From Candidatus Tayloriibacteriota bacterium (GTDB taxonomy: Bacteria; Patescibacteriota; Minisyncoccia; Phycocordibacterales; PALSA-1337): 64,000 nt of DNA. Location: assembly GCA_052034805.1 (NCBI GenBank), contig JBPOID010000003.1, positions 3,502-67,501 on the forward strand. Reading direction: 5' to 3'. Shown one piece after another: positions 18,119 through 64,000 of this stretch (position 1 is its first letter; each line of letters opens with the position of its first letter). The notes below the pieces were generated by a model. That model did not search any database. It was not told the origin of the DNA and saw only the letters and a list, made by a program, of their open reading frames with translations. Made by a program: the position numbers and the translations under genes.

Positions 18119-18172
18119 ACAAGCATTATAACAGGTATAAATACTATTTCAAAAACATGATAGAATCACTAT

Positions 18173-23962: not shown

Positions 23963-24990
23963 TATTTTGAAGTATATTTTATTATATTATCTTTCGTAAA
24001 GATAAATCTGAAAAATGAATCAATTCTTAGGTATTTTTCAAAAGCTTCCCTAGCACGTCTTTGCATATTAATCCATTCCTCATTTGAAATCTTATCATAA
24101 AAATCAGAAATTATTTTGTCTATATTTTTTATATCTTTATATGAAACTTTTATAATAAACTTTGAATAATCAATATCTTTATCCAAAGGTAATGGACAAT
24201 CTGTATCTATAAGTATTGGTATTCTACCTAGACTTAATATTTCATAAAATCTAACAGAGAAATTACCATCTCCCTTAGGGGCTAATACAAAATCACTATC
24301 TTTTATATTCTCTATATATTCATGTCTAGCCTTAATAGGATCTATGCTTATAGTATTTTTATTAGCGCTATATGATGATCTAATAATAAAGTTATTTTTT
24401 ACTAATTTGGATTTATTTAAAAGTTTAATCATTTTAATTCTAAAATAAAGACCCAATCGATGAGTACCTTTTAATATAAAAGTATTTTTAAACCAAAAAA
24501 TAATTTTATTAAAAAGACCATTAACACTAGCCCAACCACAAAAGCCGATAATGGGTATTTTTCTCTTTTCTCTATACATAATCTCATTACCATAAGACAG
24601 ATCAGTAGAATAAGCAGGCATTATTATTTCATTATCTTTTTTACGAGATAAATATTGAGACATTCTGAATATAATACTATTCGGAATATTTATATAAGAA
24701 GTAGAATCATTAGTTGAAAATATAATAATTTTTTTATTAAACTTATTAGATAAATCTACAAATTCTTTTATATAATCATCTACTTTATCTATATAATAAT
24801 AATTATGAGGAATAATAATAAAGTCACATAATTCTGGATTATCGACTATTTCTAATACAGATTTATTAAAATCATCAAAGATATCCTTATCACCAAATAC
24901 ATTATTTCTTTCTCTAAAGCCAAGATTTGGATTTAATATCTCTAAATATCTTTTATCTTTGTATAATTTACCGTAATAAACTTTTAACAT
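23962..24990 (-). CDS. Exostosin (GT47)-like glycosyltransferase domain protein
   Basis: APKGDGNFSVRFYEILSLGRIPILIDTDCPLP resembles the exostosin C-terminal block (R.YEAL..GCIPVI). Confidence 0.45.
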   Translation of the reverse strand: MLKVYYGKLYKDKRYLEILNPNLGFRERNNVFGDKDIFDDFNKSVLEIVDNPELCDFIIIPHNYYYIDKVDDYIKEFVDLSNKFNKKIIIFSTNDSTSYINIPNSIIFRMSQYLSRKKDNEIIMPAYSTDLSYGNEIMYREKRKIPIIGFCGWASVNGLFNKIIFWFKNTFILKGTHRLGLYFRIKMIKLLNKSKLVKNNFIIRSSYSANKNTISIDPIKARHEYIENIKDSDFVLAPKGDGNFSVRFYEILSLGRIPILIDTDCPLPLDKDIDYSKFIIKVSYKDIKNIDKIISDFYDKISNEEWINMQRRAREAFEKYLRIDSFFRFIFTKDNIIKYTSK

Positions 24991-34531: not shown

Positions 34532-34698
34532 ATTTTTGTATTATATATTAGTGCTAATAATAATTTCACTTAATTTGATAATAACCCCATCTAATTTGGT
34601 ATTAATTTGTATTATATACTAAAAAGATAAAATTTTTACAACTTCTCTTTATATTCAATATATTATCTATTATTTATTTTATATTTTCTGCTATATTC

Positions 34699-38665: not shown

Positions 38666-38672
38666 TATATAG

Positions 38673-39851
38673 ATGCGACATCGCATAACTTCTCTCAAAA
38701 GTAATACTATTTATACTATTGCTATAGTTGGATTTATATCTACTATACATTTAGTTTTACCTACATATTCTAATTCTAGTTTCCTATCGACTTTTATACC
38801 AGAAGATATGGTTGGTATTATCTATATGATAAGTTCAGCCATAACTATACTTAGTTTTCTAATAATACCTAGTATATTAAAGAAAGTTGGGAATTATATA
38901 ACAGCATTATGGTTAATAGTATTACAAATAATATTATTTTACGGTTTAGTAACAACAAAAGATCCTATATTATTGACCTTATTCTTTTCATTACAGACTG
39001 CAATAATCGCACTCATAGGATATTGTATAGATATATTTTTGGAAGTTTATTCTGATGCTGAACACGCTGGAGTAACTAGAGGTATGTATCTTACAACTAT
39101 AAACAGTGCATGGCTCATAGCACCACTTATAGGTAGTATGATAATAGGTGGTAATAATAATTATCATAATGTATATATAGCATCATTGTTAATGCTATTT
39201 CCTTTATTCTATTTGGTATACAAAAATTTCAAAAACTTCAAAGATCCTCATTATGGACATCTATCATTATGGAAGAATATCGTGCATATGAAGAAGAATA
39301 GTGATTATGTAAAATTATTTACAGCAAATACAATACTTCAGATCTTTTATTCATGGATGGTTGTATATAGTATAGTTTATTTAAATAAAGTTATAGGTTT
39401 TGATTGGGCAAGTATAGGTATTATACTCACCGTTATGCTCATACCATTCCCTATTATAGAATGGCCATTAGGTAAATTAGCCGATATGAAGTATGGAGAG
39501 AAAGAAATGATGACGATGAGTTTCGCGCTTCTAGGACTATCTACAATGGCTTTAGCCACAATAACGTCTAATAATCTATTCTTATGGTCATTAGCATTGT
39601 TTATAACTCGTATAGGAGCTGCTGGAGCAGAGATTATGATAGAGACTTATTTCTTCAAAACTGTTAAACCCGAAGATTCTGGATTGCTTGGATTCTTCCG
39701 TATTACTCGTTCTCTTTCATATTTTATAGCTCCATTAGTGACTGGAATAAGTTTAATCTTTTCTAAAGATCAATCATTTATTTTTATAATACTTGGTATT
39801 ATATGTCTTCTAGCTATGATACCTAGTTGGACAATAAGAGATACGAAATAA
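38673..39851 (+). CDS. MFS-type transporter
   Basis: 392 aa, ~12 predicted TM helices, two 6-TM halves. Confidence 0.6.
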   Translation: MRHRITSLKSNTIYTIAIVGFISTIHLVLPTYSNSSFLSTFIPEDMVGIIYMISSAITILSFLIIPSILKKVGNYITALWLIVLQIILFYGLVTTKDPILLTLFFSLQTAIIALIGYCIDIFLEVYSDAEHAGVTRGMYLTTINSAWLIAPLIGSMIIGGNNNYHNVYIASLLMLFPLFYLVYKNFKNFKDPHYGHLSLWKNIVHMKKNSDYVKLFTANTILQIFYSWMVVYSIVYLNKVIGFDWASIGIILTVMLIPFPIIEWPLGKLADMKYGEKEMMTMSFALLGLSTMALATITSNNLFLWSLALFITRIGAAGAEIMIETYFFKTVKPEDSGLLGFFRITRSLSYFIAPLVTGISLIFSKDQSFIFIILGIICLLAMIPSWTIRDTK

Positions 39852-46023: not shown

Positions 46024-46099
46024 TGGAGCCGATGATCGGGATCGAACCGATGGCCTCCCCATTACCAATGGGGTGCTCTACCAACCGAGCTACATCGGC
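46024..46099 (-). tRNA. tRNA-Thr (anticodon GGT), CCA encoded
   Basis: Reverse complement GCCGATGTAGCTCGGTTGGTAGAGCACCCCATTGGTAATGGGGAGGCCATCGGTTCGATCCCGATCATCGGCTCCA: 7-bp acceptor, D arm GCTC/GAGC, anticodon loop TTGGTAA, T arm ATCGG-TTCGATC-CCGAT. Confidence 0.85.
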
Positions 46100-46152
46100 G
46101 ATATAAACCTTATATTACAATAAAATATAAAAATTAACTATCTTTTAATATC

Positions 46153-47472
46153 CTATTTAGGCAATTCAACTGTAACTGTTGTACCAACATTTAATTCTGA
46201 AGAAAGAAAGATTGTACCTCCATGAAGTTCTATTATTTTCTTTGATATATATAGACCTATACCACTTTCATTTGGTTCTATAGATATAGCATTCTTCGAT
46301 CTATGAAGTCTATAGAAAACATAAGGCAAATCACCTGAAGCAATACCTATTCCGGTATCTCTAACAGTAATTCTTACAAAAGAAGGTATTTCTTCTACTG
46401 TAATAGTTACATGACCTTTCGGAGAATACTTTATTGCATTATCTATTATATTTGCAAGAGCAGGTCTCATTTTCTCTCTATCTGCATTTATAAGGAAAGA
46501 GCTAGGAGCAATGAAAGAAACTTTAACTGATTTCTTTATTATAAGGAAATTTAATTCAGCAATGATAGATTGTATTATTCCGACAATATCTACTTTTTCT
46601 ATATATATTTTTACCGAATTCTCTGTATCTTCTGCGGTTTTTAGCATTTGATTCACAACTTCTATAGCACCTTTTATTCTATCCATACCAGCATCTATAA
46701 GAGATATAGTCTCTTGTGGTAGGGATTGTGAGGACTTTATCATTTCTAATGTCCATTTTACAGCTGATAAAGGTGTACGTAATTGATGTTGTGCAACGCT
46801 CAAGAAATCCCCTTTCAGGCTATCTATTTGTACAGTTTCTGCTAATTTCTTTGCAGTCTCTTCATTTCTATATTTATGATACATTATTTCTATAATCAAA
46901 CTATATACAAAATAAGATATAACACCTATAAGAAATGTTTCTATTATATGTTTAGCAATAAGTGCAGAATCAATACTCGCAGATGGAGTGAAAACTATCA
47001 TAAAAGCAAAAGCTATAGTTATGACCATGCCCATTATTCTGGTATATATTCTATCCAAGAATACAGAAGTAGATATTATAGGAAAAAATAAAGTAAATAT
47101 AAAAGAACTATTAGTACCGCCTGTTATATATATTACATATAAGAAAAATAATACATAAGCATATATAGCAAGTACAAATAATGCATTCTTTTTCAAGAAT
47201 TCATTTAATGTAACTAATATAAAATACACTATACCTATCGCAAATAAAGCCATAACAGCATTATCTATATTCTCATTAAGCCATGTAAAGTATTGAGGGA
47301 GAAAATAAACAAAAAAACCAACAACAACTGGTATAAGTGCCCCCATCAAGCCTAGAGCATAATAATATTTCTTGAGTTGTAGGGCCGATAATTCTTGTGA
47401 GCTTTTATTAACTTTATTATCTGTATTTTTTACTATCTCATTATTTATATTATTTTTATTTAAAGGTTCCAT
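46153..47472 (-). CDS. Sensor histidine kinase with ~6 N-terminal TM helices
   Basis: H-box SVAQHQLRTPLSAV; ATP-binding NIIDNAIKYS, DTGIGI, GIGLYISKKIIELHGG. Confidence 0.85.
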   Translation of the reverse strand: MEPLNKNNINNEIVKNTDNKVNKSSQELSALQLKKYYYALGLMGALIPVVVGFFVYFLPQYFTWLNENIDNAVMALFAIGIVYFILVTLNEFLKKNALFVLAIYAYVLFFLYVIYITGGTNSSFIFTLFFPIISTSVFLDRIYTRIMGMVITIAFAFMIVFTPSASIDSALIAKHIIETFLIGVISYFVYSLIIEIMYHKYRNEETAKKLAETVQIDSLKGDFLSVAQHQLRTPLSAVKWTLEMIKSSQSLPQETISLIDAGMDRIKGAIEVVNQMLKTAEDTENSVKIYIEKVDIVGIIQSIIAELNFLIIKKSVKVSFIAPSSFLINADREKMRPALANIIDNAIKYSPKGHVTITVEEIPSFVRITVRDTGIGIASGDLPYVFYRLHRSKNAISIEPNESGIGLYISKKIIELHGGTIFLSSELNVGTTVTVELPK

Positions 47473-47500
47473 TTATATTTTTACTAAAATTTGTACTATG

Positions 47501-47575
47501 CGCGGTCGACGGGACTCGAACCCGCAACCTCTCCCGTGACAGGGGAGTGCTCTAACCAAATTGAGCTACGACCGC
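47501..47575 (-). tRNA. tRNA-Asp (anticodon GTC)
   Basis: Reverse complement GCGGTCGTAGCTCAATTTGGTTAGAGCACTCCCCTGTCACGGGAGAGGTTGCGGGTTCGAGTCCCGTCGACCGCG; anticodon loop CTGTCAC. Confidence 0.85.
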
Positions 47576-47659
47576 ATAATAAAACTAATAAAATAAGCTC
47601 ATGAACAGAGCAATATCTTATTTTTGTTATTATACACGATTCTATGAATTTTTAAAGGG

Positions 47660-47733
47660 TGTCGGCGGAAGGGATCGAACCTTCGACCTTGGGCTTATGA
47701 GTCCCACGCTCTAGCCAACTGAGCTACGCCGAC
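47660..47733 (-). tRNA. tRNA with CAT anticodon (Met/fMet, or Ile2 if lysidinylated)
   Basis: Reverse complement GTCGGCGTAGCTCAGTTGGCTAGAGCGTGGGACTCATAAGCCCAAGGTCGAAGGTTCGATCCCTTCCGCCGACA; anticodon loop CTCATAA. Three consecutive G-C pairs in the anticodon stem hint at an initiator type. Confidence 0.75.
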
Positions 47734-47755
47734 ATATGAATTGTTGAAATAATTG

Positions 47756-47827
<72 letters not shown>

Positions 47828-47923: not shown

Positions 47924-48529
47924 TTAAATAGATATATGATAAAATTCTTCGAATACTTTTTTATAAAGATCTATAACCTTTTTTGCTTCTAATTGATTCA
48001 AAGAGAAATCAGAGCCACCATGGGCTATAGCATTTCTTATTTTATGAGCTTCCCAAGCTTCATCTAATGATTTAAAATCACCCTTATTTACCCTTTTTAA
48101 TTTTTCACCCAAACTCTCTCCCCTATAACCAAGTTTAGTAATTAAATTATCCAATATTGTATCAGCATCTATAATAGCCTGTTTCCAATCATTCTGATTC
48201 GGAGAGTCTATATGACTTAATACTTTATTCCAACGCTTACCCAACTCTTCATCTATTTCTTTATCTTCTGTATAAGCTATTTCAATAGGTTTATTATATA
48301 TTTCATCCTCTTTCTTTCTAACATTCTTTATACCTTCAACTGATATTATTATTCCAATTAAAAATACAACAGATAATATTATACATATAGCCAAAACCCA
48401 ACCCTTTATAGAGTTTATGAAATAAAAAGCGCTGGGATAAGAACCTGTTAAGAAATTTAAAAGATTTTTAAAATAATAAGGTACATCTATACTAGGTACA
48501 CTTATTATTTCATTTACTTCTGCTAACAT
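47924..48529 (-). CDS. Membrane-anchored hypothetical protein with C-terminal R-x4-H (HEPN-like RNxxAH) motif
   Basis: TM helix GWVLAICIILSVVFLIGIIISV. C-terminal domain contains EAWEAHKIRNAIAHGG. Confidence 0.45.
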   Translation of the reverse strand: MLAEVNEIISVPSIDVPYYFKNLLNFLTGSYPSAFYFINSIKGWVLAICIILSVVFLIGIIISVEGIKNVRKKEDEIYNKPIEIAYTEDKEIDEELGKRWNKVLSHIDSPNQNDWKQAIIDADTILDNLITKLGYRGESLGEKLKRVNKGDFKSLDEAWEAHKIRNAIAHGGSDFSLNQLEAKKVIDLYKKVFEEFYHISI

Positions 48530-48547
48530 GTATATATTATAGCAAGT

Positions 48548-51120: not shown

Positions 51121-51222
51121 ATATAAATTAAGCTTTATTAATAATCCAATATCATGAATAATCTGAATTTATAGGGTCCATTCATTTCAAAATATGGATT
51201 TATAAATATATCATAAAAAAGA

Positions 51223-51246
51223 AAAATCGCCAATAGTGGCGATTTT
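51223..51246 (-). terminator. Rho-independent terminator immediately downstream of the 16S rRNA transcription unit
   Basis: AAAATCGCCA-atag-TGGCGATTTT perfect 10-bp stem. On the minus strand it is followed by TTTTCTTTTTTATGAT. Located 12 nt past the 3' half of the rRNA processing stem. Confidence 0.7.
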
Positions 51247-51258
51247 CTTTTACTGTAC

Positions 51259-51276
51259 TTTATTTTGTTCCGTTCA
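51259..51276 (-). other. 3' half of the pre-16S rRNA processing stem (pairs with 53065..53082)
   Basis: TTTATTTTGTTCCGTTCA is the exact reverse complement of TGAACGGAACAAAATAAA at 53065..53082. The two flank the 16S gene in a single transcript orientation, typical of an RNase III processing helix. Confidence 0.7.
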
Positions 51277-51439
51277 CTCGGAGAGTATCTCTATAGAGGA
51301 TACCCTCCTGTGCCCTTTATCTTGCGGGCTAAGTGTTCACTTTAAAGATGTAGAACAATAATCTTTGCTTGTGATAAATAAATATCAACAAAAATCGACT
51401 CGGTCAGATAATCTGAGTAAACTCAGACATATCGTATGA

Positions 51440-53060
51440 TCAAATTGAAATAATCCACGAGCAGCTTCCGCTACCCGTGCCTTGTTACGACTTACTCCCT
51501 GTCATTGAGCTTACCTTAGGCCGCGACAAGCGCGGACTTCGGGTACTCCCAACTCCCTTGAGTTGACGGGCGGTGAGTACAAGACTTGAGAACGTATTCA
51601 CCTCGGTATAGCTGACCCGAGATTACTAGCAATTCCGGTTTCATGAGGTCGAGTTGCAGACCTCAATCCAAACTGACGCACCCTTTATAAGGATTTGCTC
51701 CGCCTTTTATCGGCATTGCTTCCCGTTGTAGGTGCGATTGTATCGCGTGTGTAGCCCAGGGTATCAGAGGGACATGCTGACCTGGCGTCATCCTCACCTT
51801 CCTCCCACGACGCAGAGCACAATTATATATTGAAAAATGAATCTCTAAGAAAATTGGTTCGCTTCTCTTGCGGTCGGGAGACCTTTTCGGTCCGCTTTCG
51901 CTCTCGAAAAGGCTCCCTCCCCGGAAGCTCACACAATTTTCTAAATATAATTCCGCGCTATGTCGTGGGCAGTCTCGCCTGACAAATATAACAGGCAACG
52001 AGGGTTGCGTTCGTTACCCCACTGAAGGGAACAACTCAAGCCACGAACTGACGACGGCCATGCATCACCTGCCTAACTGTCTTGCGACGACCAAAGTTTC
52101 TTCTGGTCTTCAGCTAGGTTTCAAACCCTGGTAAGGTTCTTCGTTTGTCATCGAATTAAACCACATGATCCACTGCTTGTGCAAGTCCCCGTCTATTCCT
52201 TTGAGTTTTAACCTTGCGGTCGTACTACCCAGGCGCTTCTCTTAACGCGTTAGCTAAGCCTCTCAGAGGGTCGATACTCCGAAAAGCGAGAGAAGATCGT
52301 TTAGGGCGTGGACTACTGGGGTATCTAATCCCATTCGCGACCCACGCTTTCATGTTTCAGTGTCAGGAGTGCTCCAGTTTCTTGCCTTCGCTTTTGGTGT
52401 TCCCCATAATATCAACGCATTTCACCGCTACACTATGAGTTCCAGAAACCCCTCGCATCCTCTAGTTGTACCGTTTCCTTTGCATGTCCCCGGTTAAGCC
52501 GAAGAATTTAACAAAAGACTAATACAACCACCTACACATCCTTTACGCCCAATGATTCCGGATAACGCTTGAGGCACTCGTATTACCGCTGCTGCTGGCA
52601 CGAGTTTAGCAACCTCTTATTCGCCAAGTACTATCAATAAACTTTCTCCCTGGCAAAAGGTTTTTACGTCCCTAGGGACTTCATCAACCACGCGGCGTCG
52701 CTCCGTCAGGCTTTCGCCCATTGCGGAAGATTCTCGACTGCGGCCACCCGTAGGTGTATGGACCGTCTCTCAGTTCCATCGGTGGGGGTCACCCTCTCAG
52801 GTCCCCTAAGCGTCTTAGCCTTGGTAGGCCATTACCCTACCAACTAGCTGATACTGAACAGGCCCATCCAAAAGCGATAAATCTTTACTCTTTCGAGACC
52901 ATCAAGTATTAACTCATCTTTCGATGAGGTATCCCTGACTCTTGGGTTGGTACCTGCTTATTACTACCTCGTCTGCCACTGTGTATTGCTACACCGTTTG
53001 ACTTGCATGCCTTATCCACGCCGCCAGCGTTCATCCTGAGCTAGGATCAAACTCTTAACT
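51440..53060 (-). rRNA. rrs: 16S ribosomal RNA (about 1.62 kb, with internal expansion and atypical 3' tail; boundaries approximate)
   Basis: Reverse complement contains the 5' end AGAGTTTGATCCTAGCTCAGGATGAACGCTGGCGG (53035..53055), the 806R site GGACTACTGGGGTATCTAATCC, decoding-centre GTACTCACCGCCCGTCA, the 1492 region AAGTCGTAACAAGG, and helix 45 with GGAA loop. No 23S/5S follows. Confidence 0.92.
51806..51968 (-). other. ~160-nt AT-rich expansion/insertion in 16S helix 40 region
   Basis: Conserved flanks ...GACGCCAGGTCAGCATG/GGAGGAAGGTGAGGATGAC and ...GAGACTGCCCACGAC are separated by ~165 nt, against ~12 nt (CCGGTGACAAACC) in typical 16S. The flanks CCACGAC...GTCGTGG can pair to extend the helix. 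Confidence 0.6.
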
Positions 53061-53064
53061 AAAA

Positions 53065-53082
53065 TGAACGGAACAAAATAAA
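53065..53082 (-). other. 5' half of the pre-16S processing stem
   Basis: Exact 18-nt complement of 51259..51276; lies ~5 nt upstream of the mature 16S 5' end. Confidence 0.7.
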
Positions 53083-53347
53083 AAACAGTAATACTTTTAG
53101 GAATTATTATCTTATATTTTGAATTCTTTTAGATGCTATAGAGTTTGAAACAGCTCATGTTAATGTGAATATATTAACTTGGAATCATTGTTTCAAAATA
53201 AACATTAAACTTGCACATATTCAATCAAAAGTTGAATTCGAATACGTTCTTTCTAATGCATAACTTAAACTTAATAAATTTTCAAAAAACATGCTCTTCT
53301 TGGAGCGTAGATACCATTCTACTTATAGATAGAATAAAGTCAAGTAC

Positions 53348-54610
53348 TTAACGACTTTCTAGAGAATTTACCTCATTTTCCTTGATTTTCTTTATAATTC
53401 TCCATCTATGTCTGAAATGGCTTATTGTTACATAACTTATAAATGCCAATGCCAATACTATATAAACGATATAATCTATTACAAATCTAATAAGTGAAAA
53501 AGATGATCTTATTTCTATTGATTCATCTCTTATATTGCCCGCCTTATCTATAGCACGCACTATAACCTGTAAATTACTAGTATCAGTTACTGGTACTTGG
53601 AATGGACTTTCTGTTTGTATAAATACTGGGGAAACAGTTAGAGGTTGAGACTTATCTATAATACCAACTTCATAATGATCAATGCCAGAAAGATTATCTG
53701 TGGTAAAGAAAGAAACTAGGGTTCTTTGTGAAAGTATTGTCGCCGCTAATAAATAATTAGCTTCGGGTTTAAAATCTGCAGGAGGAGCAGTATCTATCCT
53801 TATTAGGAAATGTCCTGTACTTCCCCATTCACCCTTCGCTCCACCCTTGTGAGCCTTCACGTGGAAATACCATAGACCATCCGCCAAATCAGTAAATCCT
53901 TTACTCGTATCATTAGAATTTATTACACTATCTGGAATAGTAGAAAATTTATTATCTAAAACATAACTAAAACCATCTACATCTGTATCACGATCCCATG
54001 ATACAACCGGACTATTATTATTATACCAATCATCTTGTACTGGATGTGTTTCTGAGAAAATTCTCACACCATCTGGAGCCTTGGTAATTATTTCATAATT
54101 AGCTCTGCCTAGATCTGCAACAGCTTCAGTACCCATACCATCATTCAAAAGTATTTTTGAATCCGAACGAATACTTACTGTAGCATTACCTGTTTTCAAT
54201 GCCTTAAATGTTATAGTACCAATAAGACCTGATTTTGTAGTTATACCATCAGGTATAACTCCAACATATCTAGCCATACCTCTTTCATTATCATATTTTG
54301 GTGGTTCAACCCATATACCGATAATCGATTTACCTCCAGATGGTTTTATTATTGATAATTTATTTTTATCAAAATTAACTACTATTTCTACACCATTTAT
54401 ACTAGAATTTTTTGTATTTATAATAATAGGAACTTCAAATGTCGAACCTTCAACGAAACTCCCAGAACGAGGAGATAATGATACTTCAACTTTCGGAAGT
54501 AATTTCATAGCATTTACTGTTACTGTTTCTGCATGAAGAGGTAGAGAAAATGACATTGATATAGTCAATGCAATAATTAAAAATAAATATGATTTAATTC
54601 TATTAATCAT
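53348..54610 (-). CDS. Cell-surface protein: signal peptide, cohesin-like beta-sandwich module, second conserved domain, C-terminal TM anchor
   Basis: Signal peptide MINRIKSYLFLIIALTISMSFSLPLHA. Module VEVSLSPRSGSFVEGSTFEVPIIINT...IGTITFKALKTGNATVSIRSDSKILLNDGMGTE has cohesin-like periodicity. C-terminal helix FVIDYIVYIVLALAFISYVTISHF + RHRWR. Paralogous to the next two genes. Confidence 0.55.
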   Translation of the reverse strand: MINRIKSYLFLIIALTISMSFSLPLHAETVTVNAMKLLPKVEVSLSPRSGSFVEGSTFEVPIIINTKNSSINGVEIVVNFDKNKLSIIKPSGGKSIIGIWVEPPKYDNERGMARYVGVIPDGITTKSGLIGTITFKALKTGNATVSIRSDSKILLNDGMGTEAVADLGRANYEIITKAPDGVRIFSETHPVQDDWYNNNSPVVSWDRDTDVDGFSYVLDNKFSTIPDSVINSNDTSKGFTDLADGLWYFHVKAHKGGAKGEWGSTGHFLIRIDTAPPADFKPEANYLLAATILSQRTLVSFFTTDNLSGIDHYEVGIIDKSQPLTVSPVFIQTESPFQVPVTDTSNLQVIVRAIDKAGNIRDESIEIRSSFSLIRFVIDYIVYIVLALAFISYVTISHFRHRWRIIKKIKENEVNSLESR

Positions 54611-55764
54611 TATAATTCAATGTCTCTAATCTCTCTACCTATAGTTCTTTCAGCAGAATTTATATCTTTCTTTAATAAGGATTTATCTTCTATATCTTCT
54701 CGGAGAATATCAAAGGATTTATGTACTATATCTTCTACTTTATGCATCTCTCTTTTATATTTTCCATTACTATTTGTCTTTCTTTTTTCATCTTTATCTT
54801 CTGTATATATATGTATTATTAAATAAACAATAATAAGTATTAGTATTAACAATATAATCCATATTTGCCATGGAATATCAGAGAAAAAATTACCTATATT
54901 TATAATTATTTTATTTGATTCATTACTATGAGTACCATCACTCTTTATCATAATAGCTGTTACTGTATATTCACCAGACTTTAGAGAATTAGGTACTGGT
55001 AAATTGAAATTTCCATTATCTTCAGCTATATCAGTTATAAATATCTTAGTACCTTTTTCAGAGATAAAAGTTATTAATACTTGTGCTTTAGAATAATCAG
55101 ATATTCCTATAATAGATGGCTGATTATACTTTATTCCATATACTATCTCTGGCGACTTTAGAGTTAAAGGTTTCTCTATCACAGGTGCTGGTACTACTTC
55201 TGGAGTATTTTCTTTTATCTCTTTAATTGGTTCCGGCTTTACACTGGCTTCTTTTATAGAAAACATTGCCCCTGATAGATTGCCAGTTATGTCTGTGCCT
55301 TCTCCATCATTTGCAAGTATTTGACCAGATTGAAAAGAAATATTAGCTGAACCGATCTTTAATGGTCTTATAACTATAGTAAGAATATTACCGATTGAAC
55401 CACCTTTATATCCACCGAGTGCAACTCCTTCGAAACGGACTGTACCGTTTGATCTAGAAAGAGTTGGTTCTGTTACCCAAAAATTCAAAGCGGAACCAGA
55501 TTTTGAAACAGATTCAATAGAAAATAATGATGTTGGAATATTTATAACAGAAGATACAGCATTAAAAGCTATATCACTAGTAACATTTACCTTTAATATT
55601 ATAGAACTACCAACTTCATAACTACCAGAAGATGGACTGATGGATAGTGTCGCAGCAAAAACTGTATTAGAAAATAATGGTACAAAAAAGAATATTAAAG
55701 ATAACAATACTAGCGGATAAATATTGATTTTATTTTCTTTTTTGAAAAAATCACAAATGTACAT
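54610..55764 (-). CDS. Cell-surface cohesin-like module protein (paralog 2) with C-terminal TM anchor and ~70-aa charged cytoplasmic tail
   Basis: Signal peptide, LSISPSSGSYEVGSSIILKVNVTSD...ILTIVIRPLKIGSANISFQSGQILANDGEGTD, TM helix IWIILLILILIIVYLIIHIY. Confidence 0.55.
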   Translation of the reverse strand: MYICDFFKKENKINIYPLVLLSLIFFFVPLFSNTVFAATLSISPSSGSYEVGSSIILKVNVTSDIAFNAVSSVINIPTSLFSIESVSKSGSALNFWVTEPTLSRSNGTVRFEGVALGGYKGGSIGNILTIVIRPLKIGSANISFQSGQILANDGEGTDITGNLSGAMFSIKEASVKPEPIKEIKENTPEVVPAPVIEKPLTLKSPEIVYGIKYNQPSIIGISDYSKAQVLITFISEKGTKIFITDIAEDNGNFNLPVPNSLKSGEYTVTAIMIKSDGTHSNESNKIIINIGNFFSDIPWQIWIILLILILIIVYLIIHIYTEDKDEKRKTNSNGKYKREMHKVEDIVHKSFDILREDIEDKSLLKKDINSAERTIGREIRDIEL

Positions 55765-56600
55765 ATTACTAAAATTATAGCAAGAATTATGTAATGTTCA
55801 TACCATGGAATATTCTTCGGATTAACCATAACTACTCTTATATTGTTTGATTTATCAACAGCTTTTACATAAATCTTGGTTCTTAATTCTTGATCCTTCA
55901 AAAGATATGGGCTTGTAGCCTCTATACAATCAGATTCAATACCCTCACAAATCTCATAATGATCAATACCAGAAATCTTATCTTGAGTATTAAATACTAT
56001 AAAATATTTATCATCAAAAATATTAGGGTCTTTATTTATTTCTGGAACAAATGTTTCCGGCAAATCTTTATCTAAAATATTATATTCACTAGGTATATAA
56101 TCCTTATTAGTTTTATTAAAAATATTTAATTGTAAATTCTTTATTTTGGCTTTTATTTCTGTACCCTTTCCATCATTACGGAATAATTGTGATTTGATTA
56201 CCTTTAGAGATGTATTACCAGACTTCTTTATCTCAAAAATAATCCTTATAATATTTCCCTTATCTCCATTATATCCACCAGGAGTTATACCAGAAAGATA
56301 TATTTCACCATCTTTTAATATATTTGGTTTATCTATCCAAATATTAACTATAGAATCGCCTGTGTATATATTTTTAAAATCAAGTATATCGCTAGGATAA
56401 GAAATGGTACTTGCTATAGTGTTTATAGATTCATTTTGTGTATTCAAATATAAATCTACAGATATAATATCTCCAACTCTTAAAATATCATTAGAAGGAT
56501 TAACAATACTTAATTCAGCAGCATAAACAGTATTACTAAATAGTAATACTGTAATTAAAAATAAAATTGTAATAATTATTTTCTTCATTATCCTGTCCAA
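55710..56600 (-). CDS. Cell-surface cohesin-like module protein (paralog 3) with C-terminal TM anchor
   Basis: Signal peptide MKKIIITILFLITVLLFSNTVYA. LSIVNPSNDILRVGDIISVDLYLNT...IIRIIFEIKKSGNTSLKVIKSQLFRNDGKGTE. Shares SGIDHYE...VKAVDKSNNIR with paralog 1. TM HYIILAIILVICTFVIF. Overlaps the downstream paralog by 55 nt in a different frame. Confidence 0.55.
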   Translation of the reverse strand: MDRIMKKIIITILFLITVLLFSNTVYAAELSIVNPSNDILRVGDIISVDLYLNTQNESINTIASTISYPSDILDFKNIYTGDSIVNIWIDKPNILKDGEIYLSGITPGGYNGDKGNIIRIIFEIKKSGNTSLKVIKSQLFRNDGKGTEIKAKIKNLQLNIFNKTNKDYIPSEYNILDKDLPETFVPEINKDPNIFDDKYFIVFNTQDKISGIDHYEICEGIESDCIEATSPYLLKDQELRTKIYVKAVDKSNNIRVVMVNPKNIPWYEHYIILAIILVICTFVIFSKKKIKSIFIR

Positions 56601-57955
56601 TTAAATGCCATAATACTGAAATCTATAAGATCTATTTTTGCATCACCATTCAATCTTTCTTTTTCTATAAGCTTAAATGATTCACTGAGTATATGTTTAT
56701 ACCAAAAAGCAGCAATAGAGAAGTCTACAAGATTAACTCTGCCATCTTTATTCAAATCTCCTCTCAAAATTTTATTTGCCAAAGAGACTGCGGCAACATT
56801 TTTATTACCGACAATAAAACCTAAAGAATTACTGAAAGGACTTATTTCACCATTGATTGCTGCTTTTAATTTTGTAGAATGTTGACCCATTTCGAGAGGA
56901 GTAGTATCAAAATTATATAAATATATACCATTCTTATCAGAATTAGTTTTAGAGAAAATAGTTTCATTAGAATTAACTTGAATAGTTAAATCTCCATTGC
57001 CAACAGATTGTCCAAATATGGCTATATTATCACCTCTCTTAACTTCACTTTTATCTAAAGAAATCGTAGGAGTTATGAATATACCACCAACACTAGTTAT
57101 AACACCTCTTGTTACAAATATCTGAAATGTAAAAGGACTAGATTTCACATTTCTATTATCTTCACCGTAAACACCAAAAATATAACTACCTGGTGAAAGA
57201 TTGGTTATTCTTGCTGTAAAATTACTATCGGGACCAGCAATTGTATTAAGTATTAATTGTCCATCTTTTAGAAATCCTACCTTACTTAAAGGATAAGCTC
57301 TCCCAGAAAGGACAACTCCTGTATCTCCAGAATCAGTATCACCACCCCCACCTCCTCCTCCGCCCCCGCCACCACCTCCCCCTCCTCCGCCACCACCTCC
57401 ATTATTATTGTTTGAAGATACTGGTGTAGAAGATATTTGACTTGAAGAAGCTATAGCGTTACCAAAAATATCTTTAACAACTATAACGAAATAATAAGTA
57501 GTATTATTAGTCAAACCAGAAATACTAGAAGATGTGACATTACCGAGAGAAGTATAAGTATATGGACCTCCTGACACAGTCGATCTAGCTATATTATAGC
57601 CAGATGGAGTCCAGCCTAAAAATCCAGATGAATTTGTCCATGATAAACTAATAGAAGAATCGCCTGGTGTAGCAGAAACCACAGGTGAAGATACGAATGG
57701 ATAGAATAATGAACCCGCATTCAATTTATAATCTGTTGCACTACTAGTACCAATACTCATTTGCGATAGACTACTCCATAATTGAAAACTCGTAGAAGTA
57801 GCGTAATTAGCGGAAAACATAACTGGATCTACAACTTGATAAGATCCTGATGTGTATTCATCAGCATTAGATACAAAGACAATAGAAAGGAATAGGAATA
57901 ACGCCAGTGTTAAAGCTCTTAGATATCTAATGCCTTTATATACATCTTTTGTCAT
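56588..57955 (-). CDS. Secreted dockerin-containing protein: signal peptide, Fn3-like domain, 22-Gly linker, Ig-like domain, C-terminal type-I dockerin
   Basis: Signal peptide ...LFLFLSIVFVSNA. Fn3-like SATPGDSSISLSWTNSSGFLGWTPSGYNIARS...TTYYFVIVVKD, G22 run. C-terminal GDLNKDGRVNLVDFSIAAFWYKHIL...LNGDAKIDLIDFSIMAFNW has two Ca-binding DxNxDGxVNxxD-type dockerin repeats. Confidence 0.7.
   Translation of the reverse strand: MTKDVYKGIRYLRALTLALFLFLSIVFVSNADEYTSGSYQVVDPVMFSANYATSTSFQLWSSLSQMSIGTSSATDYKLNAGSLFYPFVSSPVVSATPGDSSISLSWTNSSGFLGWTPSGYNIARSTVSGGPYTYTSLGNVTSSSISGLTNNTTYYFVIVVKDIFGNAIASSSQISSTPVSSNNNNGGGGGGGGGGGGGGGGGGGGDTDSGDTGVVLSGRAYPLSKVGFLKDGQLILNTIAGPDSNFTARITNLSPGSYIFGVYGEDNRNVKSSPFTFQIFVTRGVITSVGGIFITPTISLDKSEVKRGDNIAIFGQSVGNGDLTIQVNSNETIFSKTNSDKNGIYLYNFDTTPLEMGQHSTKLKAAINGEISPFSNSLGFIVGNKNVAAVSLANKILRGDLNKDGRVNLVDFSIAAFWYKHILSESFKLIEKERLNGDAKIDLIDFSIMAFNWTG
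57341..57410 (-). repeat. 70-nt near-100% G+C (CCN)n tract encoding a 22-residue poly-glycine linker
   Basis: ACCACCCCCACCTCCTCCTCCGCCCCCGCCACCACCTCCCCCTCCTCCGCCACCACCTCC in a ~28% GC genome; mixed GGN codons. Confidence 0.8.
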
Positions 57956-57979
57956 TTTCTAATAAACCTCTATTGTCAA

Positions 57980-58363
57980 TTATTGGCCGATCTTTAGAGT
58001 TGCAACTTCAACTATTATATTAGACTTATCATCATATATAAGTGCTGTCTTGGATACAGGATAGACTATAAGATAATCACCTACCTTTGCTTTAACGAAA
58101 AATGGATTATTAACAAAAGGTTTAGTATCAGAAATCATAGCCACTACTGGTTTCTCATTTGTTGGTAAAGCTATTAATTTACCAACTTTATCTATAAGCA
58201 TAGTTACTTTTGCTTCATTTTCTTTATCTTGATTCTGTTTTAGAGAAACGGTTTTACTGTAGAAATAAAATAAAGATACTGATGCAATAATTATAAGTAT
58301 GATTATCACTAGAATTGGTTTAGTGAGAAACTTTGTTTTTGTATTGTTTGTATTAGGTTCCAT
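57980..58363 (-). CDS. Small N-terminally membrane-anchored protein, paralog A of a tandem triplet
   Basis: 127 aa. TM ILVIIILIIIASVSLFYF, then conserved LIALPTNEKPVVAMISDTKPFVNNPFFVKAKVGDYLIVYP...EVATL. Confidence 0.55.
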   Translation of the reverse strand: MEPNTNNTKTKFLTKPILVIIILIIIASVSLFYFYSKTVSLKQNQDKENEAKVTMLIDKVGKLIALPTNEKPVVAMISDTKPFVNNPFFVKAKVGDYLIVYPVSKTALIYDDKSNIIVEVATLKIGQ

Positions 58364-58373
58364 ATTTTTTTAA

Positions 58374-58751
58374 TTATTTTGAAGAATTTTTATTTGTTGT
58401 TTCCAAATTTATCTTGGCTACTTCCAGAATCTTATTTGCTACTGGATCATAAAGATATATTTTGCCAGTATTTTTATAAAAGACTACATTATCACCATTT
58501 TTTGCTTTTGCGAAAAATGGGTCCTTATTCAACTTTTCTATATCATTTACAACCATTATAACAGGTGTTTCATCTTCTGGTAGAATTATCAATTTACCTA
58601 ATCTAGAAACCAAATCCTCAGTTTGTTGTTCTACTGAACTCTGTGGATTATCTTTAATGTTTCCTGCTTTCTTGTAAAAGTTAAACGCAAAGCCACTTAT
58701 GATAATAAACACAACTAAAAGTAAAAAGAAAATTTTATTTCTGTAATTCAT
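58374..58751 (-). CDS. Small N-terminally membrane-anchored protein, paralog B
   Basis: 125 aa; LIILPEDETPVIMVVNDIEKLNKDPFFAKAKNGDNVVFY...EVAKI aligns with paralogs A and C. Confidence 0.55.
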   Translation of the reverse strand: MNYRNKIFFLLLVVFIIISGFAFNFYKKAGNIKDNPQSSVEQQTEDLVSRLGKLIILPEDETPVIMVVNDIEKLNKDPFFAKAKNGDNVVFYKNTGKIYLYDPVANKILEVAKINLETTNKNSSK

Positions 58752-59245: not shown

Positions 59246-62200
59246 CTATTGATTAGAGCTTGTATCAGAAGTTGCTGGTACGGTAACTACCGCTTCTGGT
59301 ACTGGAACAGAAGCAGATGTATCAGGAGTTATAGATACTGGAGCTACTTCTGTATTTGTCTGTACTGAATTATTTGTATTAGATATTGTATTGGTATTTG
59401 TATTAACATTATTATCTGTATTTATTACAGTATTTGTCTCTGTCTGATTTTCAGTATTAGGTACTGATGTATTTACTTCTGTATTATTAGAAGAACCAGA
59501 AGATTGACTTGTATTAGGCGTTATAACTGGAGTTGAAGTTGGAGTAGATGTTGAAATAGTTGTAGTTATAGTATTTAATATTGGAGAAACTATTTCTGTA
59601 TTTCCAATATAAGGAGTTGTTGTTGATATTGTTGGTGTTGTTATTATTGGATTTACTATAACTGTACTTGTTGCTGTTGAAGTAGCATTTAATGTATTTG
59701 CTTCTGTATTTACCATATCAGAATCTTTTGAAGTAAATAACTTTGCATTCTTCACAGCGAATGCTGTCCAACTAAATTCTATATCAACAGGTGCTGGTCT
59801 ATTTAGAATAATTGTGAATCCTTTTACACTTCTCTTTGTTATTAGAGATCTTATATCCTTATCAAATATTATATCTTCAATAGATTCTGTAGAAGTAGCT
59901 TCGTCTACACTAATCGAAGCATTAACGATAGGAGTATCTATATATTCTCTATCAAAGACAATATCGACTTTCTTTGCACCCTTCTTTATAAGAGCATTGC
60001 CTGCAGTATCGACGGTAAAGTATGGTCTTCCAAAGAAGATAGTATCAGAAAGTATAGATACCATAGTTGAAGTGGCACCTATAGAATCAACTAACAATCC
60101 TCCAGAGAATAGAGCTTGTTTGCTTATATTTATAGAATCAAATGCTGCAATATTTGCTGTTATAGAACCCTTGAATAAAGCATTTCCAATATTATCAAAT
60201 GACAACAATACAGTCTTTGTAGATGTAGCTATTGTAGGCAATGTAGATGTAGCTTCTGTAGAAGTTGATGAGTCTGTATTTATATCTACAACTGAAGCTA
60301 ATATATTCTTGCTCAAAGAGAATATACCATCATTTCCTAATTCCATAACTATAGAACCATTCTTTATAATAGATGTTTCAAGTGTATTTGTCTTTATGTT
60401 CTTAGCAGATATAGTTATACCTTCTACTGATTCTGATTTTAATATTCTAGTTATAACATTTGAACTTAGAACATCTGATACTGCTGTAATTTTATCTGCA
60501 AATACTTCAGATCTAGCAGAAGCCATGGTATCTCTCTGTTTCTTTACATTTGAAAGATAAGATAAGAGATCTGCTTGATGTGAATCATATATTCCAGAAG
60601 CAAATCCTGCTAATTCATTTGTAGAAGTAGCTATGTCTTGAGGATTAATATCTGAATTAATATTTGAATTAGTATTTGAATCTAGAAGAGATTTCAATTG
60701 ATCACCATTCAAAGCTAGAGAATCATCAGCGGAATCTCCTAGATAATCAACTAGATTTACGAACATTGTTATAGTTGTACATTTTCTATTTGGTATTGCA
60801 ATTCCACCCGCTGGACAATCGACTAGATTTGCAGTGTCAATACCAGATAATGCTTTTCCTATAACATGACCAGCTAAAGTTGCCTTCATAGCATAACCAG
60901 GAATACTTGATGGAGTAAGTTTATCACCTTGTCTTATCATTCCATTTTCTGTTGTAACCTTTACAGGTACACGACCTATAAGAGCTATTGGATAAGAATT
61001 CTCTGTATATGCACCAGCTACGAATCCAGGATCAGTTGAAACAACTCCCATTACATCTCCTTGATATTGATATGTCGTTTTCTTTACACCATGATTATTC
61101 TGTGGATCTATAGCTACAACATCTCCGAAATCTAATTCTTCTTGTGATGTATATCTTTCTGCAAGATCGGCACCAGAAGTATTGAATGTTCCTCCAGTCT
61201 GAGCAAATATATCTCCAGCAGAACTTACGCGGAACATAGATAATCCATCTGATTGCAAATCAATAAGATCTTTATCTTTTGTAACCTTGTATTCATACAA
61301 TACTGGAGTTATAACAGGTCTCTGAGGATAAGCCATAGCAGAACCACCATTGTTATTCCATGTATCAGTATATATACCTCCATAAGATGGGAATGATCTT
61401 CGGAAATTAAAGTTTATAGAAAGCCAAGTATCATTTGGTCCTGGATTTATAAGTCCACCCGATTTTGCAATTTCTCTTGTTGTAGATGTTGACAATGCAG
61501 CTTGAGTAGGAGCGGTTCTAACCTCTGCAGATATACCTCCTAGAGCAGTCATACCGACATTTGACTTCCATACCAAGGTAGAATTTGAATCAAGTTTTGT
61601 ACCCACAGGAGAAAGGTCAAATTGTTCAGATTTATATATACCACTAGGTACCCAACCAGCATCATATGTTTGAACAAGACTAGTTGCAGAAGTTGTAGCA
61701 CCTCCCAATATAATTACGAATTTTCCATCAGATCTTTGGAATGCAACTCCTCCAGAGTTAGCAGTAGCAGAGTTTGCAAGAGTAGGTCCAGCTACAAACG
61801 ATCCTATAGTTGATTGTGGTCCCAAAGCAGTAAGAGCACCAGCCTGTTCTATATAAATATTTGTAGTGTTCTGACCAGCTAGAGCGGCAGTACCAGCACC
61901 TTCTACTATGAGCCATGAACCATCTGGACGAGGTAATGCATAACCACCCAATCCTACTCCATTACTTGATGTAAATGCAGGACCAGTTGTTGTTATTTGG
62001 TTTTGAATAGGATTGTAAACACCAGTACCAGTTGAACCTGCACAAGAAGCAGCTGTAGCACCTCCACGAACTATAATCCATTGTCCATCAGATCTTTGGA
62101 ATGCAAATGCTCCTGGTCCAGTACCTCCAGTGTTTGTAGGAGCTCCAGTAAATGTGAAATCCATAGTATAAGGATCGAAGTTATTCGTAATAGTGTTAGG

Positions 62201-64000
62201 AGTAGGACAAGTTTTACCTCGAGGATATGTAGGCATACCAGGAATAAATAGATATGTACCATTTGGACGAGGCACCCATAGAGATCCAGGACCAACAGCA
62301 GCAAATGTTGCAGCAGTTGTCAGAGGACGAGGTCCAACTGTCATAGTATTATTCACAGGATCATATATAGAAGAATTACTTGTAAGACCTCCATGCATTA
62401 TAAGTACACGTCCATTAGGAAGTGGTATAGCAGAAGCACCGATACCAGCACCAGTTGTACCAGATACACTGGCTAAGTTCGGACCATCTATAAATGTATT
62501 TGCTACTGGATCATATATATTTGTTGTAGAAGTCGCAGCGAAACTACCTTCACCAAGAATAATTAAGAATTTGCCATCTGGCCTCTTGAATGCAAATCCT
62601 CCTGTACCTATAGGTGCTGTAGGAGAAACTGTATTTAGAGTTGTTGTACCAGTTGCTTCATCATATATTTGAGAGTTTGGAATAGATGAACTTGCAGATA
62701 TAATTACGAATTTTCCATCAGGCCTCTTCATAACTATAGTAGTTGAAGCTGTAGGAACATAAAGTCTTGGGGCATTCTGGAATGAGCCATTGTAGAAATT
62801 AGGATTTGTAGCATTTATAGTAGAGCCATATCCAACACCAGCAGCCAAAGCCAATGCATTTGCACGATTCTTATCATTTGTAATATTTATAGCAGCAGGA
62901 CCAGAATCTGGAGCAGTTGAAGAAGATACGGCATTTCCAAAATCAAATTGAGTTCTATGAAGTGATGTACTATTATCTACAACAATTGATGATATAGTTG
63001 GATCAGCATTCACACGACGATATCTGGTTATACCTCCCTTTCTTAATCCCCATTCTTGATCAAGGAATCTCGGTAATTCACGTTGGAATGTAAATTTGAA
63101 TTGAATAAGATTGTCAGCTGTTGTAGTTGCACGTATAAGATCTCCACTATTTCCTATTGGTCTATATTCTGCAGAAGAACAGGAAGATGGACTTGTAGCT
63201 GTTCTTACATAAACTTTAATAGTTCCTTCACTATTTGTAGTCCAATTCAAAGTAGAATCAGGAGAAAGATTTGTACTACTTATACATTCACTTTCATAAT
63301 ATGCATCTTGTTGATTGGCACGATTAGTACCTGTAATAAAGTTCATATCATATATATCCATGGTGTTCTTGAATCCACCATTTATAACAGCATATCTACC
63401 ATCAGGTAACATAAATGCAGTTAGACCATAACCACCAGTATTAGATAGAGTCAAACTAGTATTAGAGAATTGTGGTGCAAGATAATTACTTGTACCAGGT
63501 ATACCAGATCCAGCATCTATAACATTTATCATATTTCCTACTGTGGTACTTGCTGAAAGTAATAGATAATTACCATCTTGTCTCCATATAGATTGAGCCC
63601 CATCAGAAAGTATAGATGTAGGTCCAACACCTAGATCACCAGAGAATCCTCCTGTTGAACCAGTTGTTGTTCCGACAGGTTTGTAAATAAATGATTGAGA
63701 AGCAGGACCTGGTAATGTAAGGAATGTACCATCTTGTCTTCTTATAGAGAATGCTCCATTAGCTATTCTTACTGGCGTAGTAGGTCCTGTAAGCATAGTA
63801 CCTGTAATAATGTTTGAGGCAACTGTGTTTCCAGAATAAGGATTATATACATATGTTGTATTAGTACCTCCTTGATAAATAAGGAAAGTACCATCATCTC
63901 TTTGTAATGCATGTGTACCAGCACCCCAAGTACCAGTTATACCTATACTTACATTTGTATATCCTGCATTTGTTGCAGCAGAAGGGTTATATATACCCCA
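59246..64000 (-). CDS. Giant (>1580 aa) Kelch-type beta-propeller repeat surface protein with Thr/Ser/Asn-rich C-terminal tail; 5' end beyond window edge
   Basis: At least 12 repeats of ~45-50 aa with YDP/YNP...N and R.DG..L(I/V)..GG hallmarks (e.g. FAFQRSDGQWIIVRGG, NIYDPVANTF, SSIYDPVNNTM). The frame stays open upstream of the first Met (63796) to position 64000 and continues in Kelch-like sequence (LQRDDGTFLIYQGG). Last ~170 aa are TSTPTSTPVITPNTSQSS...NTNTNTISNTNN low complexity. Confidence 0.75.
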   Translation of the reverse strand, partial: WGIYNPSAATNAGYTNVSIGITGTWGAGTHALQRDDGTFLIYQGGTNTTYVYNPYSGNTVASNIITGTMLTGPTTPVRIANGAFSIRRQDGTFLTLPGPASQSFIYKPVGTTTGSTGGFSGDLGVGPTSILSDGAQSIWRQDGNYLLLSASTTVGNMINVIDAGSGIPGTSNYLAPQFSNTSLTLSNTGGYGLTAFMLPDGRYAVINGGFKNTMDIYDMNFITGTNRANQQDAYYESECISSTNLSPDSTLNWTTNSEGTIKVYVRTATSPSSCSSAEYRPIGNSGDLIRATTTADNLIQFKFTFQRELPRFLDQEWGLRKGGITRYRRVNADPTISSIVVDNSTSLHRTQFDFGNAVSSSTAPDSGPAAINITNDKNRANALALAAGVGYGSTINATNPNFYNGSFQNAPRLYVPTASTTIVMKRPDGKFVIISASSSIPNSQIYDEATGTTTLNTVSPTAPIGTGGFAFKRPDGKFLIILGEGSFAATSTTNIYDPVANTFIDGPNLASVSGTTGAGIGASAIPLPNGRVLIMHGGLTSNSSIYDPVNNTMTVGPRPLTTAATFAAVGPGSLWVPRPNGTYLFIPGMPTYPRGKTCPTPNTITNNFDPYTMDFTFTGAPTNTGGTGPGAFAFQRSDGQWIIVRGGATAASCAGSTGTGVYNPIQNQITTTGPAFTSSNGVGLGGYALPRPDGSWLIVEGAGTAALAGQNTTNIYIEQAGALTALGPQSTIGSFVAGPTLANSATANSGGVAFQRSDGKFVIILGGATTSATSLVQTYDAGWVPSGIYKSEQFDLSPVGTKLDSNSTLVWKSNVGMTALGGISAEVRTAPTQAALSTSTTREIAKSGGLINPGPNDTWLSINFNFRRSFPSYGGIYTDTWNNNGGSAMAYPQRPVITPVLYEYKVTKDKDLIDLQSDGLSMFRVSSAGDIFAQTGGTFNTSGADLAERYTSQEELDFGDVVAIDPQNNHGVKKTTYQYQGDVMGVVSTDPGFVAGAYTENSYPIALIGRVPVKVTTENGMIRQGDKLTPSSIPGYAMKATLAGHVIGKALSGIDTANLVDCPAGGIAIPNRKCTTITMFVNLVDYLGDSADDSLALNGDQLKSLLDSNTNSNINSDINPQDIATSTNELAGFASGIYDSHQADLLSYLSNVKKQRDTMASARSEVFADKITAVSDVLSSNVITRILKSESVEGITISAKNIKTNTLETSIIKNGSIVMELGNDGIFSLSKNILASVVDINTDSSTSTEATSTLPTIATSTKTVLLSFDNIGNALFKGSITANIAAFDSINISKQALFSGGLLVDSIGATSTMVSILSDTIFFGRPYFTVDTAGNALIKKGAKKVDIVFDREYIDTPIVNASISVDEATSTESIEDIIFDKDIRSLITKRSVKGFTIILNRPAPVDIEFSWTAFAVKNAKLFTSKDSDMVNTEANTLNATSTATSTVIVNPIITTPTISTTTPYIGNTEIVSPILNTITTTISTSTPTSTPVITPNTSQSSGSSNNTEVNTSVPNTENQTETNTVINTDNNVNTNTNTISNTNNSVQTNTEVAPVSITPDTSASVPVPEAVVTVPATSDTSSNQ

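Follow-up and report, generated by a model that had tools for sequence, protein, structure and literature searches.

Two questions are raised by this locus: whether its 16S rRNA gene has truly lost the anti-Shine-Dalgarno (anti-SD) sequence CCUCC, and how translation would then start on mRNAs that have nothing to pair with. We addressed both in the window, which is the whole 64,000-nt stretch of DNA analysed here (29% GC; 64 kb of the genome covered), and in related loci from genomes and metagenomes.

The 16S rRNA gene and its 3´ tail

The window contains a full-length 16S rRNA gene on the minus strand (51443–53062; Rfam RF00177, 1327 bits, model positions 1–1533; boundaries as predicted by Rfam). 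Helix 45 is intact. It forms a 10-bp stem with a GGAA loop, CACGGGUAGC-GGAA-GCUGCUCGUG, at 51479–51456 of the minus strand in the Rfam alignment, and it is also recovered by a stem scan and by the invariant alignment columns. Directly after helix 45 stands GGAUUAUUUCAAUU, which is aligned to GGAUcACCUCCUUu of the Rfam model and occupies the place where bacteria usually have GGAUCACCUCCUUU. The 3´ tail (51438–51455, minus strand) reads GAUUAUUUCAAUUUGAUC in place of GAUCACCUCCUUUCU, and the positions equivalent to CCUCC (51450–51446, minus strand) read UUUCA in the same alignment. The stretch from helix 45 up to the next gene (51480–51121), terminator included, contains no CCTCC in the rRNA sense. 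CCUCC(U) is accordingly absent after helix 45, which is the defining feature of the anti-SD-less Parcubacteria 16S rRNAs. An earlier sequence-only reading had described an intact helix 45 with a GGAA loop, followed by a tail without CCUCC; the Rfam alignment and the CCTCC-free trailer bear out both statements, and the string that it quoted, GGAUUAUUUCAAUUUGAUC, is indeed the minus strand at 51456–51438.

The gene is framed by the elements of a transcription unit. A promoter-like site for the rRNA transcript (TTGACT-16 nt-TAGAAT, 10 of 12 matches) lies at 53316–53343 on the minus strand. The 24-nt 5´ strand of a pre-rRNA processing stem (53065–53088, minus strand) ends 2 nt before the 5´ end of the 16S rRNA, and its 3´ strand, GUGAACGGAACAAAAUAAAGUACAG (51253–51277, minus strand), is located ~180 nt downstream of helix 45. 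Leader 53088–53065 and trailer 51277–51253 pair with a duplex ΔG of −28.8 kcal/mol, and the same stem, GTTCCGTTC/GAACGGAAC, recurs in relatives of the clade. An intrinsic-terminator-like hairpin with a T-run (51215–51247, minus strand) marks the end of the 16S transcription unit. Neither a 23S nor a 5S rRNA gene is present within the 64 kb, and pyk is the next gene. Given its promoter-like site, its terminator and its leader-trailer stem, the locus looks like a normal rrs, unlinked and apparently expressed, whose transcript would form a processing stem of the RNase III type.

The trailer is ~230 nt long and structured, and nearly all of it is conserved with compensatory changes in the related locus L188, as exemplified by the hairpin GGAGGGUAUC/GAUACUCUCC versus GGUUGGUACC/GGUACUAACC. 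Searched as a known RNA family, the trailer yields only sub-threshold, terminator-driven Rfam matches (rimP leader and sraL), which were rejected. At 51384–51401 (minus strand), the trailer carries the short sequence (U/A)GUCGAU, which recurs 42–72 nt past helix 45 in nearly all clade members, with the variants GGCGAU, GUCGAC and UUGAC; a complementary partner in the leader was not seen in the window. Helix 45 together with the U-rich tail (51446–51479, minus strand) is itself terminator-like in a consensus scan, and even more so in relatives with GAUCAUUUUUUU. The conserved processing stem further downstream argues for transcription that reads through this element. The body of the 16S rRNA gene carries a 153-nt insertion in the loop of helix 40 (51809–51961, minus strand), between CUGCCCACGAC and GUGGGAGGAAGG. 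The G+C content of this insertion is above the genome level, and it contains hairpins and no ORF.

Shine-Dalgarno sites and start-proximal -10 boxes

The mRNA side was assessed on a set of ~51 long ORFs (code 11), whose starts are those of the longest ORF and were assigned without a gene finder. Pfam confirms groES, groEL, pyruvate kinase, a gatA-like amidase, RNase J, an OppA-like SBP and a histidine kinase, in agreement with the names given in the sequence-only reading; the Pfam scan covered ~20 of the 51 ORFs. The starts of groES, groEL and pyk agree with the Pfam profiles, and groES has a single possible start codon. ATG is the start codon in 46 of the 51 window genes. Within positions −20 to −1, the motifs GGAGG, AGGAG, GGAG, AGGA and AAGG occur in none of the 51 genes, and GAGG occurs in one. 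By duplex energy, the upstream regions of the window genes pair with the canonical anti-SD just as shuffled sequences do. The same is true of the native tail at −20 to −1, for which the pairing is also weaker than in coding-sequence controls, so that no replacement SD is found. The upstream regions are G-poor and A/U-rich, and their composition reads T-A-T-A-A-T at −12 to −7, followed by A at −6.

Related loci give the same picture. In 489–491 genes of anti-SD-less loci, SD-like 4-mers are present in 11% at −18 to −4 and in 11% in a control window, and the corresponding values for the genes of canonical-tail loci are 19% and 9%. The CPR loci that retain the anti-SD contribute 33 genes and 3 genes to two comparisons, too few for a contrast in SD use. 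The absence of SD motifs, which had been noticed for a number of genes, thus extends to all 51 genes for GGAG and AGGA and to the pairing energies, and neither the window nor its relatives make typical use of SD sites. No significant avoidance of SD-like motifs inside coding sequences was detected in this small sample (z from −0.7 to −1.8), which is compatible with an absent anti-SD. GGAGGT occurs in 18 copies on the minus strand, 16 of them in the coding sense of genes; several correspond to GGAGGTGGTGGCGG-type repeats in a glycine-rich stretch (57340–57400, minus strand) of ORF 56588–57955.

A −10 box phased to the start codon is found in many window genes. Exact TATAAT with a 4–9-nt spacer to the ATG is observed 10 times versus 0.7 expected, and 5-of-6 matches at the same spacing are observed 29 times versus 6–8 expected from neighbouring bins, counts that are to be read against the frequency of TATAAT-like strings at 29% GC. 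The spacer distribution has a sharp peak at 6 nt (12 genes versus ~1 expected; Poisson P ~1e-8), which substantiates the earlier remark on TATAAT-like boxes close to the ATG. Roughly one gene in four has the hexamer at −12 to −7, counted from the A of the ATG, and over half have it within 4–10 nt of the ATG. In σ70 promoters, a −10 hexamer at −12 to −7 stands at the usual distance from the transcription start; therefore, transcripts from these boxes would begin at the start codon. The TG of an extended −10 element accompanies 22% of the start-proximal boxes versus 4% of the boxes elsewhere (five-fold, P = 0.001), and −35 hexamers show a weak enrichment at the start-proximal boxes (P = 0.08). 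The peak at the 6-nt spacer is also seen in relatives (36 versus ~5). It persists in relatives with a GC content of at least 0.48 (9 versus ~0.3), which have clear TGnTATAAT forms, so that AT richness does not account for it.

Individual boxes illustrate this geometry. A TGnTATAAT-type box (18125–18130, minus strand) lies 6 nt before the ATG of gene 17483–18118 and is an example of the leaderless arrangement, as are, by their spacing, a TGcTATAAT box (48536–48541, minus strand) 6 nt before the ATG of gene 47924–48529 and a TGaTAGAAT box (18161–18166, plus strand) 6 nt before that of gene 18173–19789. A TATAAT at 38661–38666 (plus strand), again 6 nt before the ATG of gene 38673–39851, falls within the last part of the preceding RNase J gene. 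The groES ATG, an unambiguous start, is preceded at 8 nt by TATAAT (34540–34545, minus strand). Just upstream of the groES box, TTAGCACT (34550–34557, minus strand) corresponds to half of a CIRCE-like heat-shock operator, and a matching inverted half at the usual 9-nt distance was not seen near groES.

These observations lead us to propose, as the probable explanation, that the window belongs to a subgroup of the Parcubacteria (GTDB Paceibacteria) that has lost the anti-SD from its 16S rRNA, that its mRNAs accordingly carry no SD sites and that many of them are leaderless. Judged from the promoter geometry, RNA polymerase would start at the start codon or within 1–3 nt of it, and many mRNAs would be leaderless and bound via their 5´ AUG. 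For genes that closely follow another gene, three routes are conceivable: promoters lying within the preceding coding sequence, re-initiation following termination (at eight gene junctions the overlap is 1 or 4 nt, ATGA being an example), and ribosomes that load on A/U-rich RNA free of structure. The anti-SD segment, no longer pairing with mRNA, may have drifted through C-to-U changes and now appears to be locked in a UYC-loop-GRA hairpin in most relatives, with 3´-end protection, processing and platform docking as candidate roles. Sequence features of leaderless-type genes are present, namely a −10 hexamer at a fixed distance (in the window, in its relatives and in the GC-rich relatives), the lack of SD sites and AUG starts. 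The earlier suggestion of possible leaderless initiation is thus strengthened by the promoter placement in the window and in the clade, but it is drawn from geometry, and the 34 operon-internal genes are hard to explain by it.

Operon-internal genes, defined as those located at most 40 nt downstream of another same-strand gene (n = 34), have −10-like boxes in 19 cases, compared with 11 of 17 first genes. Boxes that are equally common before operon-internal genes imply either promoters within coding sequence for most genes or an element that acts, in addition or instead, at the RNA level. The first alternative, taken to its limit, would make nearly every gene, operon-internal ones included, leaderless from its own −10 promoter, with the anti-SD segment turned into a conserved cis hairpin that would occupy the platform site of the SD helix near h26, or would define or protect the 3´ end. 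We regard this far-reaching version as rather unlikely; if it were true, it would describe a bacterial ribosome hard-wired for SD-free initiation.

The second alternative is that the UAUAAU-like element 6–9 nt before the AUG is no promoter but serves mainly as a loading site on polycistronic mRNAs, A/U-rich and of an S1-type or Kozak-like nature, which would allow SD-independent initiation on mRNAs that are not leaderless. The equal frequency of the element before operon-internal genes, at gaps of −4 to +10 nt, and the weak −35 signal speak for it. There is also a precedent: Bacteroidota reportedly initiate independently of SD with A-rich upstream signals, as Baez and colleagues are said to have described in 2019, and they reportedly retain an anti-SD that is sequestered by bS21, bS18 and bS6, a finding attributed to Jha and colleagues in 2021. 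The present lineage resembles the Bacteroidota in its genome-wide lack of SD sites and its A-rich start contexts. However, the Bacteroidota keep CCUCC in the rRNA, whereas here CCUCC is lost and the segment is self-paired in relatives. A loading site is distinctly unlikely, since the peak falls at exactly 6 nt, the σ70 distance between the −10 box and the start, the extended −10 TG is enriched five-fold and the same hexamer stands out as TGnTATAAT in GC-rich relatives.

A further alternative holds that the new tail, UUUCAAUUUGA, has co-evolved with a new A/U-rich ribosome-binding motif upstream of the genes. The upstream regions are A/U-rich, and gene 23962–24990 is preceded by CAAATTGAAATAA, which is complementary to the tail. 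Such pairing is nevertheless very improbable: the energies with the native tail given above do not exceed those of shuffles and fall short of the coding-sequence controls, the tail varies among relatives (UUCA.., UCC.. and U-run types) and is mostly self-paired, and TTGAAA-like strings double as −35-like promoter hexamers.

Clade distribution of the altered tail and its predicted hairpin

A helix 45 pattern that is agnostic of the tail was run against GTDB species genomes and gave at least 120 loci. The pattern is permissive, and many matches are from Actinomycetota and Chloroflexota, which served as canonical-tail controls. Among the matches listed, CCTCC is absent in 22 of 22 GTDB-species loci that share the window's helix 45 stem (CACGG...TCGTG), and the named ones of these are Paceibacteria/Paceibacterota, Zambryskibacteria, Nomurabacteria and Parcubacteria group. 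The other ~98 listed loci (Actinomycetota, Chloroflexota, Magasanikbacteria, Saccharimonadales and others) keep GGATCACCTCCTT, with a sole exception, the archaeal locus L121, which has an insertion between helix 45 and ATCACCTCC. Searching metagenomes with the helix 45 of the clade added 120 further loci. Helix 45 is identical across the resulting 140 related loci, most of which are metagenomic, and the canonical tail is absent in 138 of them. The two exceptions are L158 and L168. L168 stands farthest from the rest (at most 74% over the last 330 nt), a distance consistent with anti-SD loss inside the Parcubacteria. The best 16S matches to the window, with 84–87% identity among the matches listed, are MAGs named Paceibacteria, Paceibacterota, Zambryskibacteria, Nomurabacteria and Parcubacteria group. 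By its helix 45, its 16S matches, its 29% GC, its 16S insertion and its unlinked rrs, the organism can be placed in the Parcubacteria/Paceibacteria.

The former anti-SD position is occupied in most relatives by a small predicted UYC-loop-GRA hairpin, which in the window corresponds to a weak 3-bp mini-hairpin, UCA-AUU-UGA (51440–51448, minus strand), proposed from the covariation in the clade. Tails of type 1 read GA(A/U/G)(U/C)A(A/U)UUCA-loop-UGAA, those of type 2 read ..UCC-loop-GGA.. and those of type 3 read GAUCAUUUUUUUAAAA; intermediate tails, for example GAUCACUUCCAUGUGGAAA, look like C-to-U decay of CACCUCC. In a register-free contingency test, a TTC arm is followed by GAA in 69 of 81 tails and by GGA in 0 of 81, and a TCC arm, which occurs in at least five tail families, is followed by GGA or GGG in 14 of 14. 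The covariation of the arms has a Fisher P of 4e-16, a statistic that ignores phylogeny. Hairpins of at least 4 bp are formed by 104 of 127 unique tails versus 67.5 ± 5 in shuffles. Column pair counts, run on two alignments (ungapped MAFFT and covariance-model), give 62–65% of cells paired, with double changes at a similar level in slid controls and with variable loop length. The compensatory changes between the arms support the predicted replacement hairpin, which provides a specific feature for structural biologists to seek in CPR ribosomes. Era, whose KH domain binds GAUCA and CCUCC, is absent from most CPR (PMC10582724; PMC12641178).

The anti-SD could in principle be displaced and not lost, either to a 3´ exon with CCUCC behind an intron or intervening sequence, a case that the sequence-only reading had itself raised, or to a second, canonical rrs copy. 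Insertions are frequent in the rRNA genes of CPR, and the 153 nt in helix 40 are an instance in the window. In addition, L188 has foreign, non-16S sequence directly 5´ of AACAAGGCACGGG (AACAAGG), upstream of the h44/h45 junction, which suggests an intron or insertion at that junction and is combined with the same tail as in the window, and L121 carries the insertion mentioned above. Displacement is nonetheless extremely improbable. CCTCC is absent from helix 45 to the terminator, and none is consistently placed within 800 nt downstream in the 22 relatives. A downstream segment with GAUCACCUCC, as expected for a split 16S rRNA, is likewise found neither in the trailer nor in these 800 nt. The trailer is enclosed by the conserved leader-trailer stem and closed by the terminator. 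With 138 of 140 loci lacking the canonical tail, a hidden canonical rrs copy is unlikely beyond the 64 kb of the genome covered, and the genes have no SD sites, so that an anti-SD would have no pairing partner.

A mis-assembled or decaying 16S pseudogene is virtually inconceivable, since, although short-read contigs often break within 16S rRNA genes and the contigs of L001 and L002 start within helix 45, the gene is a full-length, high-scoring Rfam match, its tail and trailer are identical in L001 and L002, which are independent assemblies from different SRA sequencing runs, and the clade keeps helix 45 and the types of tail along with the promoter, processing stem and terminator of the transcription unit. 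Two metagenome loci, L188 and L237, have tails near-identical to that of the window. On this comparative sequence evidence, the loss of the anti-SD is a trait of the clade and not an artefact.

Precedents and neighbouring genes

Bacteria rich in leaderless mRNAs include Mycobacterium, Deinococcus and Streptomyces, as well as the "group C" genomes of GeneMarkS-2; Cortes and colleagues (2013, cited in PMC12641261) are said to have described such bacteria. The lineage studied here resembles them in its −10 hexamer at about −12 to −7, its lack of SD sites at these starts and its preference for ATG. However, leaderless-rich bacteria retain an anti-SD and rely on SD sites at leadered and operon-internal genes, whereas here the anti-SD is gone and the internal genes are SD-less. 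Mammalian mitochondria, in which the SSU rRNA is without an anti-SD and the mRNAs are leaderless (PMC10582724), share both the missing anti-SD and initiation on leader-free mRNAs, the latter being suggested here by geometry. In contrast to these organelles with factors of their own, the present organism is a bacterium, free or epibiotic, whose promoters are of the standard bacterial kind.

The closest match is the Parcubacteria subgroup reported by Tsurumaki, Saito, Tomita and Kanai (2022, RNA 28:1041; PMC9297842), which is likewise a CPR lineage with a 16S 3´ end without CCTCCT and with rRNA insertions. In that study, the CCTCCT motif was detected in 48% of Parcubacteria, the loss of the anti-SD overlaps the group that lacks uL1, the authors conclude that no SD helices form, and h26 is unusually conserved (PMC9297842). 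The initial view of anti-SD loss as rare in bacteria agrees with the same study for bacteria overall, where Lim 2012 and Amin 2018 are cited (PMC9297842), but it fails for this lineage. The 2022 study covers the absence of the motif and its overlap with uL1; it does not cover the replacement of the segment, the absence of SD sites in mRNAs or the promoter placement. In the literature covered by our search, no paper connects Parcubacteria or CPR with leaderless initiation, and none treats a leaderless promoter signature or a replacement hairpin in them. Anti-SD loss is already published for the lineage; what the present analysis adds are −10 boxes in phase with the start codon, a lack of SD sites throughout the clade and the predicted replacement hairpin.

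The window provides a well-assembled, concrete locus within the single large bacterial group for which such a loss of the anti-SD is known, and it adds the mRNA side to the 2022 report: SD sites are absent, and throughout the clade a −10 box stands in phase with the start codon. Should transcript mapping prove the proposal true, leaderless initiation would be the prevailing way to start translation in a major uncultured radiation. Gene-start prediction in CPR would then be affected, because models based on ribosome-binding sites would misplace starts, and there would be consequences for the heterologous expression of CPR genes and for views on the dispensability of SD.

In the minus-strand stretches 53348–54610, 54610–58751 and 59246–63796, a 1516-aa ORF and several of its neighbours have no Pfam match, and a cohesin domain is identified by Pfam in the ORF that adjoins the 16S rRNA gene. 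These stretches may form a cell-surface gene cluster. At 46024–47827 on the minus strand, genes for tRNA-Thr(GGU), tRNA-Asp(GUC) and two tRNA-Met(CAU) are located on either side of a histidine kinase gene.
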